Shown here in pieces: positions 1,656 through 62,854 of a stretch of DNA of 64,000 bases. Location: the NCBI GenBank assembly GCA_028281845.1, contig JANQJD010000013.1:11615-75614 (forward strand), given 5' to 3'. The first letter of the stretch is position 1. The number at the start of each line of letters is the position of its first letter. Under the pieces are notes generated by a model. It did no database searches, was not told the DNA's origin, and worked only from the letters and a program-made list of their open reading frames with translations. The translations under genes and the position numbers were made by a program. The DNA is from Rhodospirillales bacterium (lineage in GTDB: Bacteria; Pseudomonadota; Alphaproteobacteria; Rhodospirillales; Rhodospirillaceae).

Positions 1656-1683
1656 AACAGATTCGTTTCAACAGATTCGTTTC
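1656..1683. repeat. perfect tandem duplication, 2 x 14 bp (aacagattcgtttc)
   Basis: Read directly. Intergenic, 13 nt upstream of the trxB start. Confidence 0.9.
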
Positions 1684-1696
1684 ATAAGAGGAGATT

Positions 1697-2638
1697 ATGG
1701 CAAACTATCACGCAAAGGTGCTCGTTGTGGGTTCTGGTCCTGCCGGTTGTACAGCAGCAATTTATTCTGCTCGTGCCAATCATCACACAATTTTAGTCGA
1801 AGGACTACAACCTGGTGGTCAGTTAACCATCAGCCTCGAGGTTGAGAACTACCCAGGCTTTGAGCAAGCTGTCCAAGGCCCTTGGCTCATGGAAAAGATG
1901 ATGGCACAGGGAAAGCATGCAGGTGTGGTAGTGATGGAAGATTCTATTGTGAAAGTAGATTTACAGGAAAGACCATTCACAGTGACTGGCGATTCTGGTG
2001 CTATTTACACAGGAGAAACTCTCATTGTTTGCACAGGAGCATCCGCAAGATGGTTAGGAATTGAAAGTGAGGAACGTTATAAAGGATTCGGTGTCTCAGC
2101 TTGTGCTACCTGTGATGGATTCTTCTTCGTTGGGAAGGAGGTTTGTGTTGTCGGTGGTGGTAATGCGGCTGTGGAAGAGGCGCTTTCTCTGACGAATCAT
2201 GCGACACGGGTGACTCTCATCCACCGTCGTAATTCGTTTCGAGCTGAGCGGATGATGCAAGACCGTCTGTTCGCTAATGAAAAAATCCATGTGGTCTGGG
2301 ATACAGTTGTCGAAGAAATATTGGGCGAAGAAAGACCGCCGTCTGTAAAAGGTCTAAAAGTAAAAAATGTAAAGACGAATAGAATATCTATTATTAAAAC
2401 TGATGGACTCTTTGTTGCCATCGGACACATTCCAAACACTGATTTGTTCAAAGGACAGCTCTCTCTTGATGCAGAGGGTTACATTATAACTGCCCACGAC
2501 TCCACAGCAACTAACATTCCTGGTGTCTTTGCCGCTGGAGATGTTCAGGATCCTGTTTATCGTCAAGCTGTAACAGCTGCAGGAACGGGGTGCATGGCCG
2601 CTATAGAAGCGGATCGTTTCCTTACCCTATATCTCTAG
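1697..2638 (+). CDS. trxB: thioredoxin-disulfide reductase
   Basis: 313 aa. GSGPAG FAD motif, redox-active CATCDG, GGGNAA NADPH motif. AGAGGAG RBS. Confidence 0.93.
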   Translation: MANYHAKVLVVGSGPAGCTAAIYSARANHHTILVEGLQPGGQLTISLEVENYPGFEQAVQGPWLMEKMMAQGKHAGVVVMEDSIVKVDLQERPFTVTGDSGAIYTGETLIVCTGASARWLGIESEERYKGFGVSACATCDGFFFVGKEVCVVGGGNAAVEEALSLTNHATRVTLIHRRNSFRAERMMQDRLFANEKIHVVWDTVVEEILGEERPPSVKGLKVKNVKTNRISIIKTDGLFVAIGHIPNTDLFKGQLSLDAEGYIITAHDSTATNIPGVFAAGDVQDPVYRQAVTAAGTGCMAAIEADRFLTLYL

Positions 2639-2876
2639 GGCTTACCTTATATATATTTATATAGGGTCATTGCCTAACACGGCGACATATGAGCGGAGCG
2701 AGCAGTCGATTGACTCTTCACGCGTTCTTAGCGTCTCTTTCCGCCTCAGAAGGCAAGAGGATTTTTCAACAGACAGCTTTTCTGACAGACAGACTCAGAC
2801 TCTCTGCAGAGGAACGTTCACCTTTGAAACATCATCCTAATGACATGGTTTATCTGAGGCGCTCTCTTACTCTTAA

Positions 2877-2902
2877 TGTTGTCGTTTATTGTTGTCGTTT
2901 AT
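2877..2902. repeat. perfect tandem duplication, 2 x 13 bp (tgttgtcgtttat)
   Basis: Read directly. In the trxB/MFS gap, inside the dubious ORF 2689-3060. Confidence 0.9.
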
Positions 2903-3190
2903 TTTCCTTCTCCTCTATGCAACATGGCCCTCACTATCATCACCTTTTAGAAGAAGGAGTCATCCAGACTGCTCTAACCTGCGGCAGGAAGCGCTACTAC
3001 GTGAAGAGGGACATTGCTAGGGAAACTATCTTCGCAGCCGTCCCGAGCGACTTCTTTTGAAGGGTATCCATTTTCCAGATTGATTTCAACCCCTGCCTGA
3101 GGGTATGTACAAGTTCTCTGTCGCGCTGGCAGCAAGCGGTTTTTGCTATGCGGCTTTGGCCGCCAAAGAGGGCTGAAGGGGAATCGTATC

Positions 3191-60921: not shown

Positions 60922-60930
60922 GTCTGCCCT

Positions 60931-61587
60931 CTAACAAGATTGCTGTAGGCTCTGTGCTATTCTCTCTGCCGCTTGCATGTCCGCTAGCGTATTCATATTC
61001 ATGAAATGGTCTAGTGGTGTGGCACTAAAATCAACAATTTTTACTAGATTTTTTAACAAAAAATCTTTTATTCTTAGGTTGTCCTTTTCCAGAAATGTCA
61101 TAAGACATGAAATCAGCGCGACATCCCAGATGCAGACAAGAGGGTGTAGATGCCCAGCAGAGCGGGCACATACTACAGGAGTTTGATTTTTAAACATTTC
61201 TTCTATTAAACGATTCACAAGATCATGTGGTAGGAATGGAGTATCTCCAGGAACGGTCAGGAGACGTGTCGCTCCCCTCTGCGCTGCCCAGCGCAGTCCT
61301 ACGAGGACTCCTCCAAGAGGTCCTTGATTGACATGGGTATCTTCAAGTATTGGTGTGCCAGGGAAAAGAGCCGTGAATCCTTCTGACGGACCATTCACGT
61401 TGAGCGCTAGCTGTGCGACCTGTGGAGCAATGATTGTCCACACATGACTAATCATTGGACGGCCCGCTAAGAGGCGCAAGGCCTTGTGCCCGCCGCCCAT
61501 GCGGCGCGAGAGACCGCCAGCGATAATAATCGCTACTATTTTTTCTCTCTCTAGAGGGCAAGAATCTCTTACGATTCCAAATGCCAT
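60931..61587 (-). CDS. mobA: molybdenum cofactor guanylyltransferase
   Basis: IIAGGLSRRMGG..K nucleotide-binding N-terminus. Start set to ATG 61587. Divergent from moaA. Confidence 0.8.
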   Translation of the reverse strand: MAFGIVRDSCPLEREKIVAIIIAGGLSRRMGGGHKALRLLAGRPMISHVWTIIAPQVAQLALNVNGPSEGFTALFPGTPILEDTHVNQGPLGGVLVGLRWAAQRGATRLLTVPGDTPFLPHDLVNRLIEEMFKNQTPVVCARSAGHLHPLVCIWDVALISCLMTFLEKDNLRIKDFLLKNLVKIVDFSATPLDHFMNMNTLADMQAAERIAQSLQQSC

Positions 61588-61723
61588 AATACGGGAAATC
61601 CCTCTTAATCTTTTCGTTATAATTTGGGAACATAATCTATAAAAATTACACCTTGTACATTTTTTCAATGACATATCATTATAGTACTACTCACATATAG
61701 TAATCCTCAAAGGAATTCTCGTC

Positions 61724-62701
61724 ATGTTTGATCGATTCGGGCGCCAAGTGACGTCCCTGAGACTTTCAGTGACAGACAGGTGTGATCTACGTTGCTTTTA
61801 TTGTATGACGGAAAGTGTTACTTTCACGTCAAGAAGAGAATTGTGCTCTTTAGAAGAACTAGACAGGATATGTGGAGTTTTAATTCAACTTGGCGTGTGT
61901 AAAATTCGTCTCACGGGTGGGGAACCTTTTGTCCGCAACGGATTTATGAAACTCGTAAGGTTGCTGTCCCGTCATCTCGGAGAAGGTGGGCTAGAAGAAC
62001 TGACAATGACGACAAATGGAATCCGTCTCTCTCAGCATGCTGTGGAATTATTAGAAATAGGCGTACGGCGCGTAAACGTGTCTGTCGACAGCCTGCGTCC
62101 AGATCTTTTTTTAGCAATTACTCGCCATGGGCGATTGGCGCGCGTGCTGGACGGCATTACGGCTGCTGCCAGGGCTGGCCTCAGAATCCGCATTAATACC
62201 GTGGTCTTAGCCGGACTCAACGAGGATGAGCTGATAGAGTTAGTGCTTTGGAGCGGTGATCACGGCTATGACATCTGCTTTATAGAGGTGATGCCACTTG
62301 GGAGTTCTGGCAGATATTACATGCCCATCTCTCGAGTGCAAACAAAACTAGCCCAGCGTTTTACCCTCACAGAGAGCGATTACCGTAGTAGCGGACCTGC
62401 TCGCTATGTCAACTGTGTTGAGACAGGCCAAAGAATTGGGTTCATTGCACCCATGAGCTCTGCTTTCTGTGAGTCCTGCGATCGGATACGACTCACCTGT
62501 GCTGGAATACTTTTCCCGTGCCTTGGGCAAGAGCACTCTGTAGATTTACGTGTCCCTATGCTTCTGAGCAAGGAAAACACTCTGTTAGTCACAGCTATTG
62601 CCGAAGCCTTGCGGCAAAAATCGCGAGGCCATAGTTTTGCCCACAATCACGTCGCTAACAAGTATGGTCTCACTCGCAGAATGAGTGTTACTGGAGGGTG
62701 A
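61724..62701 (+). CDS. moaA: GTP 3',8-cyclase (radical SAM)
   Basis: LR.SVTDRCDLRCFYC radical-SAM cluster, C-terminal auxiliary cluster Cys (CESCDRIRLTCAG), ends in GG. Confidence 0.93.
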   Translation: MFDRFGRQVTSLRLSVTDRCDLRCFYCMTESVTFTSRRELCSLEELDRICGVLIQLGVCKIRLTGGEPFVRNGFMKLVRLLSRHLGEGGLEELTMTTNGIRLSQHAVELLEIGVRRVNVSVDSLRPDLFLAITRHGRLARVLDGITAAARAGLRIRINTVVLAGLNEDELIELVLWSGDHGYDICFIEVMPLGSSGRYYMPISRVQTKLAQRFTLTESDYRSSGPARYVNCVETGQRIGFIAPMSSAFCESCDRIRLTCAGILFPCLGQEHSVDLRVPMLLSKENTLLVTAIAEALRQKSRGHSFAHNHVANKYGLTRRMSVTGG

Positions 62702-62832
62702 TTTGATTTTCCTCTCAGAAATGGGACTCTGTCAAAATGTGCCTTTGATGTGCATTTTAACGGTGTTTTTTTCTCTTTAAAAGTTCTCTTAACAAGAATT
62801 ATGTGTGAGAGTTGCTTTTTAAAGCATTCCGT

Positions 62833-62854
62833 TCTATGTCAGATCTATGTCTGA
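62833..62854. repeat. near-perfect tandem duplication, 2 x 11 bp (tctatgtcaga / tctatgtctga)
   Basis: Read directly. In the moaA/ndk gap. One mismatch. Confidence 0.8.

Follow-up and report, generated by a model that had tools for sequence, protein, structure and literature searches.

In this work, a stretch of 64,000 nucleotides from contig JANQJD010000013.1 of a Rhodospirillales bacterium (assembly GCA_028281845.1), referred to here as the window, was analysed for short, perfect head-to-tail duplications. The genes in the window are ordinary housekeeping genes (dnaK/J, nrdJ, purD, ilvD, asd, cobB, queA/C and others). A self-offset scan, which sought perfect head-to-tail repeats whose unit is not itself periodic, identified 43 tandem duplications with units of 8–21 bp between positions 1656 and 59768, and Tandem Repeats Finder agreed with it. 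Their copy number is 2.0–2.5 throughout, and no array beyond 2.5 copies was found in the window by either program. Units of 8 bp were present in 13 events, 9 bp in five, 10 bp in seven, 11 bp in three, 12 bp in four, 13 bp in two, 17 bp in three and 18 bp in two, and there was one event each with a unit of 14, 15, 19 and 21 bp. The units differ in sequence from event to event and there is no recurrent length class. A first-pass annotation made from the sequence alone had counted 25 perfect duplications with units of at least 10 bp, almost all of them two-copy, and the scan returned the same number, again with little more than two copies at most.

Source organism and excess of tandem duplications

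The PurD protein encoded in the window is 89% identical to that of GCA_028278135.1, its closest relative, and 76% identical to that of Candidatus Riegeria santandreae (LR026963), the chemosynthetic endosymbiont of the flatworm Paracatenula, with a genome of 1.34 Mb, 51.8% GC and 83.9% coding sequence (PMC6486704). For the comparison with the closest relative, 62.6 kb of contig JANQEW010000029.1 (477220–539828) were joined from three overlapping loci; this stretch is collinear with the window from 4.4 to 64 kb at approximately 85% nucleotide identity. The window is also collinear with Ca. R. santandreae, at about 70% identity. From the PurD identities and the collinearity it follows that the source is a reduced-genome symbiont related to Candidatus Riegeria and not a free-living bacterium, and the earlier description of it as a metabolically complete alphaproteobacterium is not supported.

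By comparing the window with 100 dinucleotide-preserving shuffles of itself, mean counts of 1.06 (unit of at least 8 bp) and 0.10 (at least 10 bp) were obtained, with maxima of 4 and 1, respectively. The 43 observed duplications lie far above this level, and the expectation of about 0.1 for units of at least 10 bp, which had been calculated beforehand for random sequence, was reproduced. Because shuffled sequence is a weak control for real genomes, the same count was made in natural sequence. The density of units of at least 10 bp is 3.9 per 10 kb in the window and 0.20 per 10 kb in 80 alphaproteobacterial purD loci (1.4 Mb), which is an approximately 20-fold difference. One control locus, from Geomesophilobacter sediminis (L063), exceeded the remaining controls by far, with seven perfect duplications (unit of at least 10 bp) in its 21 kb. 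In the closest relative, 13 repeats with units of at least 8 bp were found against 43 in the window, and four with units of at least 10 bp against 25; restricted to the matching part of the window, the latter comparison is 23 against 4 in 62.6 kb of collinear sequence, or about sixfold. The excess is thus seen against shuffles and related genomes alike, the two comparisons that the first-pass annotation had proposed.

Three of the 43 repeats lie within genes and also occur in the relative. The 8-bp repeat TCAGGCAC at the 3' end of purD (36378–36393) has both copies there, the 8-bp repeat CGTACCTT in the L25 gene (37666–37682) is identical there, and the 9-bp repeat GGAGCGTGG in gloB (47039–47056) has both copies there with two differences. 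Since they are shared, these repeats are old or coincidental and were left out of the burst, which leaves 40 lineage-specific events. The queA gene contains a further tandem repeat, of 24 bp with two mismatches (60565–60612), which may represent an in-frame duplication of greater age; a 12-bp indel distinguishes the relative nearby.

Age, authenticity and selective filtering of the events

Fourteen sites have flanks that can be aligned, and at each of them the relative shows a single copy with a gap as long as the unit, so the alignment to the closest relative that had been suggested for polarising the events gives a gain in the window lineage in 14 of 14 cases. Among repeats with units of at least 12 bp, the window contains 15 perfect pairs, no pair with one mismatch and five with two mismatches, the last of which are probably mostly chance. 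The corresponding numbers of perfect and one-mismatch pairs are 3 and 6 in the relative and 15 and 47 in the control genomes. A steady process without loss should leave about as many one-mismatch as perfect pairs, and the ratio of 15 to 0 therefore indicates a very recent burst or a fast turnover, as had been proposed from the perfect identity of the copies. The absence of any difference in 460 duplicated sites (unit of at least 12 bp) limits the mean age to about 0.65% divergence between copies. Within this age bound, 22 events with units of at least 10 bp arose in the 12.9 kb of non-coding DNA, and we estimate at least about one duplication per three to four base substitutions in non-coding DNA, where the events have a density of about one per 370 bp. 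The pairwise indel counts of the two lineages are similar (52 and 43). Other indels are thus about equally frequent in the window lineage and in the relative, and the excess is specific to tandem duplications. In a three-way polarisation of indels with Ca. R. santandreae as the outgroup, too few intergenic events passed the filters at 70% identity. The relative itself has four perfect duplications of at least 10 bp and several one-mismatch pairs. For perfect duplications this is about 3 times (unit of at least 10 bp) and about 10 times (at least 14 bp) the density in the controls, and the age spectrum is flat; the clade may already have had the process at a low level before the window lineage underwent its burst.

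Most of the duplications were recovered independently of the assembly in which they were found, as the first-pass annotation had asked. Two Logan contigs of run SRR20820735, L085 (window 4420–19842) and L090 (31353–43901), are 100% identical to the window and reproduce 24 duplications. Two contigs of run SRR31924840, L093 (527–3140) and L094 (39981–41880), are also 100% identical and contain six duplications, four of them beyond the set of the first run. The four contigs add up to 32.5 kb and contain 28 of the 43 duplications. Run SRR31924840 was made much later than the first, and its contigs show no difference from the window over 4.5 kb, non-coding DNA included. No polymorphism was found between the two runs, and copy number is identical at the six duplications that SRR31924840 covers. 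Either the sampled symbiont population varies very little, or both runs were made from the same material.

The position of the duplications relative to genes was determined with gene models refined from gene calls on the Logan contigs and on the relative. Several long open reading frames (ORFs) of the window are misleading: in 17436–19187 (hldE), 24549–25457 (ATP12 family) and 26244–28082 (lnt), the first start lies 55–90 codons upstream of the start supported by homologues, and the ORFs 2689–3060 and 55172–55504 have neither a homologue nor a gene call. With these corrections, the duplications that seem to lie in such ORFs are non-coding. On the minus strand at 40286–40477, the Logan gene caller placed a 63-aa ORF, which holds a 12-bp and an 18-bp duplication, both multiples of three; the relative has no such gene, and the ORF is probably spurious.

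Of all 43 duplications, 35 lie in the non-coding 20.2% of the window (binomial P = 1e-17). Lineage-specific duplications inside genes are all in frame and comprise a 15-bp unit in dnaJ (CCCCTCCAGAGGAGG, 6711–6742), an 18-bp unit in nrdJ (CAATCTGCAGGTGGTGGG, 31855–31890), a 9-bp unit in ilvD (AGACGGTTA, 51409–51426) and a 21-bp unit in codons 2–15 of pmbA (ACAGATAACATTAACCTCTTA, 55648–55690). In each case the relative has one copy and a gap of the unit length, which is exactly 18 in nrdJ, 9 in ilvD and 21 in pmbA. No gene conserved in the relative is interrupted by a duplication in the window. Purifying selection has therefore filtered the events and removed them from genes, save for a few in-frame ones. 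Across the 64-kb window the process looks genome-wide, and the density is similar in divergent, convergent and tandem spacers (2.7–3.0 per kb), in line with the earlier view of a generic mutational process and not a mobile element. We conclude that the window records a real, recent and lineage-specific burst of de novo tandem duplications, filtered by selection.

Duplication boundaries along the window

The first-pass annotation had found no motif shared by the duplicated units and had considered the process not to be site-specific. The first statement holds for the units, but the flanks carry a motif, and the second is not supported. In a first listing, a C was present exactly 4 nt upstream of the left boundary (position –4) in 15 of the 24 events with unambiguous boundaries. 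This was the best of 144 position-by-base tests in an unplanned scan (P = 3.6e-5), with a family-wise P of 0.004 by simulation. In the full test, every equivalent boundary placement of the 40 lineage-specific events was allowed, and the expectation was taken from 20,000 sets of duplications made in silico at randomly chosen non-coding sites. A C at –4 of the left boundary was found in 25 of 40 events against 13.5 expected (P = 1e-4), and a G at +4 of the right boundary, which is a C at –4 on the other strand, in 20 of 40 against 13.5 (P = 0.024). Both were present together in 14 of 40 events (5.5 expected, P = 7.5e-4). The dinucleotide TC at –5/–4 on the left occurred 13 times against 4.6 (P = 3.5e-4) and its mirror image GA at +4/+5 on the right 12 times against 4.7 (P = 9.5e-4); counted over both sides, T precedes the C in 25 of 45 motif sites, where 30% would be expected (P = 3e-4).

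Among offsets 1–10, offset 4 alone stands out. The signal is also seen in the 25 events with longer units (at least 10 bp): 20 of them have C(–4), 22 have C(–4) or G(+4), and 12 have both, where 3.5 would be expected. In addition, G is depleted at +1, the first duplicated base, T is weakly enriched at –2 and –1, and A is mildly raised at +1. The motif was not seen in the 4–7 bp repeats of the window or in the duplications of the control genomes, and it is not significant in the few events of the relative (10 of 13). Hairpins or flanking inverted repeats were considered and rejected: the in-register complementarity of the flanks is present at position 4 and not beyond, and being confined to this position it represents a motif and not a stem. 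The GC skew in the window was too weak to guide the direction of replication.

The individual events are given below from left to right. No strand is assigned to any of them (strand field '.'), all are perfect, and each has two copies unless stated otherwise; C or TC refers to positions –4 or –5/–4 on the left and G or GA to +4 or +4/+5 on the right, and events whose flanks are too diverged from the relative for a call of the copy state are termed not polarisable. The first two are non-coding, lie outside the compared stretch of the relative and are identical in L093: a 14-bp unit AACAGATTCGTTTC at 1656–1684 with C and GA, and a 13-bp unit TGTTGTCGTTTAT at 2877–2903, in the unsupported ORF 2689–3060, without the motif.

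The next eleven are identical in L085. They begin with a 10-bp unit TTAGGCAGTA at 5749–5769, which is non-coding, not polarisable and flanked by TC and GA, and the dnaJ duplication described above, with C and GA. A non-coding 10-bp unit GATGTTGACT at 11146–11167, for which the relative has one copy and a gap of 10, is again flanked by TC and GA. A non-coding, not polarisable 10-bp unit CACGTATACC at 14393–14412 abuts a 9-bp unit CATATAACT at 14412–14429 that overlaps the stop codon of a glcD-like gene and is single-copy in the relative; both are without the motif. The others of this contig are non-coding. A 9-bp unit GGTGTTATG at 16253–16270 is not polarisable and has GA, and an 8-bp unit GCCAGAGC at 17408–17423, of which the relative keeps 13 of 16 bases so that its state is ambiguous, has C and G. 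A 17-bp unit ATTGGGTTTTCCGTGGG at 19014–19048, upstream of the true hldE start (18917), has GA, and a 19-bp unit TTAGAATACAGGTAACTGG at 19057–19094 has C; the relative has one copy of each. An 11-bp unit TCTAGTCAGAA at 19394–19417 with TC and GA and an 8-bp unit ATTGTTCT in 2.5 copies at 19593–19612 with GA are not polarisable.

Three non-coding events follow. Two 8-bp units, TATATGGA at 23015–23031 and CTCCTCTG at 25415–25430 (upstream of the ATP12-family gene), are not polarisable and are without the motif. For the third, a 12-bp unit TAGATATATCCC at 28244–28267 with C, the relative has one copy and a gap of exactly 12, with flanks that are 90% identical.

The nrdJ duplication, with TC and G, is identical in L090, and so are the five duplications in the 1.2-kb non-coding spacer between a pheA-like gene and purD (33902–35113). 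These are a 10-bp unit AATCTCGCGT at 33937–33957, which is not polarisable and has TC and GA, an 8-bp unit GCTGAATC at 34448–34463 with TC, a 17-bp unit AATGTAAGCAGTGCTTC at 34578–34612 with C, an 8-bp unit GAAGTCAA at 34657–34672 with GA, and a 17-bp unit ATACTATCCTAGAATAG at 35002–35035 without the motif. In Ca. R. santandreae, the interval from the prephenate dehydratase gene to purD (8365–10002 of locus L083) contains three short ORFs with Exonuc_VII_L matches (8365–9658), that is, a split xseA. The spacer of the window contains no gene, and no exonuclease VII remnant was detected in it by tblastn; the closest relative has a spacer of 1.0–1.2 kb at the same spot (L081 8973–10000), likewise without a gene or a detectable remnant. 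As judged from these sequences, exonuclease VII seems to be decaying or lost across the clade.

Four non-coding events are identical in both L090 and L094: a 12-bp unit GCCTTGCTCTTT at 40289–40312 with C, an 18-bp unit ATGGCGAGAATACACGCG at 40373–40408 with TC, a 10-bp unit ACTCCACATT at 40487–40506 with C and G, and an 11-bp unit TTTAATACCAG at 41821–41842 with C. A non-coding 8-bp unit GATCGGCC at 43727–43742 with C and G is identical in L090, and the relative has one copy and a gap of 8.

In the right-hand part, a 10-bp unit CCTTTTCACT at 45977–45996, between two genes, is not polarisable and has TC, a non-coding 12-bp unit GTTGATCATCTT at 48369–48392 has G and is single-copy in the relative, and the ilvD duplication is without the motif. 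Two non-coding events are not polarisable, namely a 10-bp unit AGAAGTCCTT at 52857–52876 with C and G and an 11-bp unit CGCTCTCAATG at 55257–55278, in the unsupported ORF 55172–55504, with TC and GA. A non-coding 8-bp unit GAGCGGAG at 55433–55451 is present in 2.4 copies and has G, and another 8-bp unit AATCGTGT at 55470–55485, also non-coding and with one copy in the relative, has TC. The pmbA duplication has C and GA; directly after the pmbA stop, a non-coding 9-bp unit AACAGGCGT at 57007–57025 aligns ambiguously and is without the motif.

Between tRNA-Leu and purS, the closest relative has a 205-aa gene of the LTXXQ family (Spy/CpxP-like; L088 12710–13327). At its position the window has no ORF (58260–59030), and the sequence there is gapped and diverged and contains three duplications. 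The gene has probably been lost recently in the window lineage, to judge from this alignment. The duplications are a non-coding, not polarisable 12-bp unit TCTTCTTATGAC at 58287–58310 with TC, in the gene remnant, an 8-bp unit TATGACAC at 58305–58320 that overlaps it and is without the motif, and a non-coding 13-bp unit ATTGTACGACATG at 58474–58500 with TC and G, for which the relative has one copy. The last event of the window is a non-coding 8-bp unit TCTGCAAT at 59752–59768 with TC, where the relative has one copy and a gap of 8. Three pairs of duplications are close to each other: those at 14393–14429 abut, those at 19014–19094 are 8 bp apart and those at 58287–58320 overlap. This arrangement indicates two successive events at one spot. 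The clustering is not significant, with three abutting or overlapping pairs against approximately 1.3 expected by a hand estimate. Duplication hotspots have been reported for E. coli topA mutants.

A proposed role of topoisomerase I in the birth of tandem repeats

Replication slippage explains the growth and shrinkage of existing repeats, not their birth from non-repetitive DNA. The latter is the question addressed here, and its prior link to topA alleles comes from one laboratory study. In that study, the E. coli topA allele R168C was shown to be a mutator that makes short head-to-tail duplications independently of existing repeats, 2–19 bp long in resistance assays (PMC6954433) and up to 24 bp in the whole-genome tables, with an unchanged rate of point mutation (Bachar et al., Nucleic Acids Res 2020). 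The authors sought the known topoisomerase I cleavage motifs, found none, and did not decide between a direct action of the enzyme and an effect of altered supercoiling (PMC6954433). Bacterial and archaeal topoisomerase I choose a cytosine 4 nt upstream of the cleaved bond (PMC3467081). The enzyme joins the 5' phosphate, and the C is held in a pocket of its own, where a tyrosine is inserted between –4 and –5; topoisomerase III has different residues there, and an R169A enzyme favours A at –4 (PMC7587558). Furthermore, the in vivo cleavage motif of the E. coli enzyme was reported as TCNTT|A/T, with the C strictly required (PMC9352719).

The boundaries in the window resemble this type IA preference in the C 4 nt 5' of the presumed nick. 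Of the wider context, T is enriched at –5 and G is depleted at +1, while T at –2/–1 and A at +1 are weakly enriched. Type IA cuts are transient and faithfully resealed, whereas the motif in the window is read from the end points of mutations. Because the C lies in the flank, a nick at the duplication boundary would put the free 3'-OH in the flank and the 5' end with the bound enzyme on the copied side, as in type IA cleavage, and this is the geometry that a duplication needs. We hypothesize that one strand is cut four bases 3' of a C, preferably of TC, by topoisomerase I (TopA, type IA), which stays covalently linked to the 5' end, while DNA polymerase would extend the free flank-side 3'-OH across the next 8–21 bases. 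The strand could then be resealed in two ways. In the first, TopA would join its own 5' end to the extended strand. In the second, the other strand would receive a mirror-image nick, and the two 5' overhangs produced in this way would be filled in, as for target-site duplications. By either route the copied stretch would end up twice, head to tail, and no junction homology would be needed. An altered topA, or an altered factor that handles TopA–DNA complexes, would explain why the window lineage is affected. TopA as the nicking enzyme, the extension and resealing steps and the change in topA or in such a factor are the parts of this reading that we infer. It is, in our judgement, rather probable that a burst (or fast turnover) of duplications of about 8–21 bp in this Candidatus Riegeria relative started at topoisomerase I cleavage sites. 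The further claim, that TopA itself writes the new repeats by a nick 4 nt 3' of C, an extension of 8–21 nt and resealing by the enzyme, in a natural symbiont lineage and at a rate comparable to base substitution, stands in our view at an even balance.

The first-pass statement that no equivalent description was known for such an alphaproteobacterium is not supported, since the R168C mutant shows the same mutational phenotype (PMC6954433). In both systems, short and previously unique sequence is duplicated head to tail independently of repeats (40 lineage-specific events of 8–21 bp here), and topoisomerase I is implicated; in the window, the duplications also appear to be frequent relative to point mutations, to judge from the estimate given above. 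The window differs in coming from a natural symbiont lineage and not from a laboratory allele, in an excess that starts at 8 bp whereas units of 2–7 bp are common in the mutant, and in boundaries that carry C(–4) and TC, while no cleavage motif was found by the authors of the R168C study. The C(–4)/TC at the boundaries points to a direct role of the enzyme. We re-analysed 20 R168C events of at least 8 bp (8–24 bp), placed on the BW25113 genome. G at +4 on the right was found 13 times against 7.4 expected (P about 0.01), GA at +4/+5 six times against 1.9 (P about 0.011), and C(–4) or G(+4) 15 times against 11.4 (P 0.08), which gives weak and one-sided support to the role of topoisomerase I.

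Several observations weigh against this role. In the R168C events, C at –4 on the left is not enriched (6 against 6.9, not significant), so the signal is on one boundary only, and the authors themselves found no motif. In the window, C(–4) was found post hoc; it survives correction, and its mirror image and T(–5) were then predicted and found, but in 40 events from one 64-kb window. Nine of these 40 events, and 3 of the 25 with units of at least 10 bp, have this C on neither flank. There are also weaker enrichments inside the unit, of G at unit position 4 (21 against 13.5) and of C at the fourth-last unit base (12 of 25, unit of at least 10 bp), without a T at –5; the resealing step could also prefer a C 4 nt from the new 3' end, or these could be noise. 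TopA cleavage in E. coli is reported to be concentrated in divergent, promoter-rich spacers, whereas divergent spacers of the window have 2.67 duplications per kb against 2.98 in convergent and 2.79 in tandem ones, so a preference for promoter-rich spacers was rejected. In the closest relative, duplications are modestly in excess and the motif is not significant (10 of 13). The topA gene lies outside the window, and a causal change in it is presumed. Finally, the way in which the four possible C(–4) positions occur together does not discriminate between one nick and two.

The best of the other explanations dispenses with topoisomerase: any nick could be followed by strand displacement and ligation of an unprocessed 5' flap, if the DNA polymerase I 5' nuclease, RNase H, RecJ or ExoVII were defective, or closely spaced nicks on opposite strands could be filled in. 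Such errors of flap or gap repair would account for the lack of microhomology and for a size of about one to two helical turns, and the loss of exonuclease VII from the locus in this clade fits with them. They do not predict C at –4 or TC at –5/–4 at a single offset on both flanks, and we regard them as a possible but rather unlikely origin.

Replication slippage or template switching at short direct repeats, perhaps with lost mismatch repair or single-strand exonucleases, is a textbook route to tandem repeats and was the mechanism, at microhomology, that the first-pass annotation had favoured. The source is a reduced-genome symbiont, repair genes are often lost in such lineages, and the window has no detectable exonuclease VII remnant where Ca. 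R. santandreae keeps Exonuc_VII_L fragments. However, the junction homology, measured as the run of extra matching bases beyond two full units, averages 0.58 nt against 0.76 nt after in-silico duplication of random non-coding segments, a simulation with zero microhomology; the partial third copies of 0–4 nt noted earlier are therefore genuine but at chance level. Units of 4, 5, 6 and 7 bp, which slippage favours, number 204, 83, 35 and 9 in the window and 174, 72, 34 and 14 in the relative, so that there is no excess over the relative in this range and the excess begins at 8 bp. The chance-level junction homology, the lack of a short-unit excess and of arrays beyond 2.5 copies, and the similar indel counts together argue against slippage between short repeats, which would also not be expected to leave a motif in the flanks at a constant distance of 4 nt. 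The loss of exonuclease VII as the cause was rejected as well: the closest relative is also without the gene at the same spot and yet has sixfold fewer events, so this loss does not explain the difference between the lineages. Slippage is accordingly improbable as the source of the burst.

It is slightly less probable still that the duplications are footprints of mobile elements (target-site duplications left after insertion and excision) or of a nuclease that prefers TC, measures 4 nt and makes staggered cuts. Cuts with 5' overhangs followed by fill-in do make target-site duplications, and this geometry fits the mirrored motif. A given transposase gives a fixed length, whereas the units here span 8–21 bp without a dominant class; the window contains no transposase, integrase or repeat family, there are no extra bases between the copies, and the motif agrees with that of a known housekeeping enzyme, although the 4-nt offset from C could be imitated by a purpose-built nuclease. 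An artefact of assembly, polishing or amplification, for which the ratio of 15 perfect to 0 one-mismatch pairs is the expected pattern and which would be conceivable if the tiny-worm samples had been amplified, as we assume they may have been, can be set aside with near certainty, since an independent assembler and a second run reproduce 28 duplications at 100% identity, and since an assembly or polishing error would be blind to the reading frame and to where genes begin and end, whereas 35 of 43 duplications are non-coding, the lineage-specific units in genes are all multiples of three and no conserved gene is broken. Initiation at topoisomerase I cleavage sites ranks well above all of these; a flap defect, nuclease or mobile footprints and slippage do not predict a fixed 4-nt offset from C.

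Topoisomerase II is also known to make duplications de novo, in yeast top2-F1025Y,R1128G and K720N and human TOP2A K743N (PMC11477040, PMC8795545, bioRxiv 10.1101/2020.05.03.075358). There, as proposed here, a trapped enzyme with 5'-linked ends and fill-in of 5' overhangs make a repeat where none existed. On the other hand, topoisomerase II is a type IIA enzyme with a fixed 4-nt stagger that gives duplications of 2–4 bp and requires end joining (Lig4, Pol4, Tdp1), whereas the units in the window are 8–21 bp long with a type IA motif, and the window has no surplus of 4-bp units compared with the relative (204 and 174). Deletions by Top1 and duplications of 2–4 bp by Top2 that need end joining are described in a 2024 review of genome instability caused by topoisomerases, which contains no type IA case (PMC11477040). 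When the literature was searched specifically for tandem duplication in connection with type IA topoisomerases, the R168C paper was the only one found (PMC6954433).

As in Portiera and Ehrlichia ruminantium, the tandem-repeat rise in the window is specific to an endosymbiont or obligate intracellular lineage and concentrated in intergenic DNA. In E. ruminantium, which the first-pass annotation had offered as a parallel, Collins et al. are said to have described in 2005 longer units in arrays that vary in copy number. Such multi-copy, variable arrays are not a close match, since each event in the window is a two-copy duplication of a different unique sequence, and the same difference separates it from Portiera. 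The repeats of Portiera of Bemisia tabaci are multi-copy microsatellites with a sharp 7-bp class, which the authors tied to the loss of dnaQ along with further repair genes (PMC3673631).

Topoisomerase I thus probably creates new tandem repeats in nature. The window is a natural data set in which the birth sites of duplications bear the known cutting signature of this enzyme, and it makes the direct model testable. If this is true, it would be the first mutational signature of a type IA topoisomerase to be read from a wild genome, it would settle the R168C question towards direct action of the enzyme, and the lineage would be a natural counterpart of the E. coli topA mutator. For annotation, it is relevant that several long ORFs in the window are non-coding DNA or 5' extensions of genes. 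For the symbiont, which is inherited vertically, the window shows that one mutational process is able to reshape its non-coding DNA, with about one event per 370 bp, and can add 3–7 amino acids to housekeeping proteins, which matters for models of genome decay.

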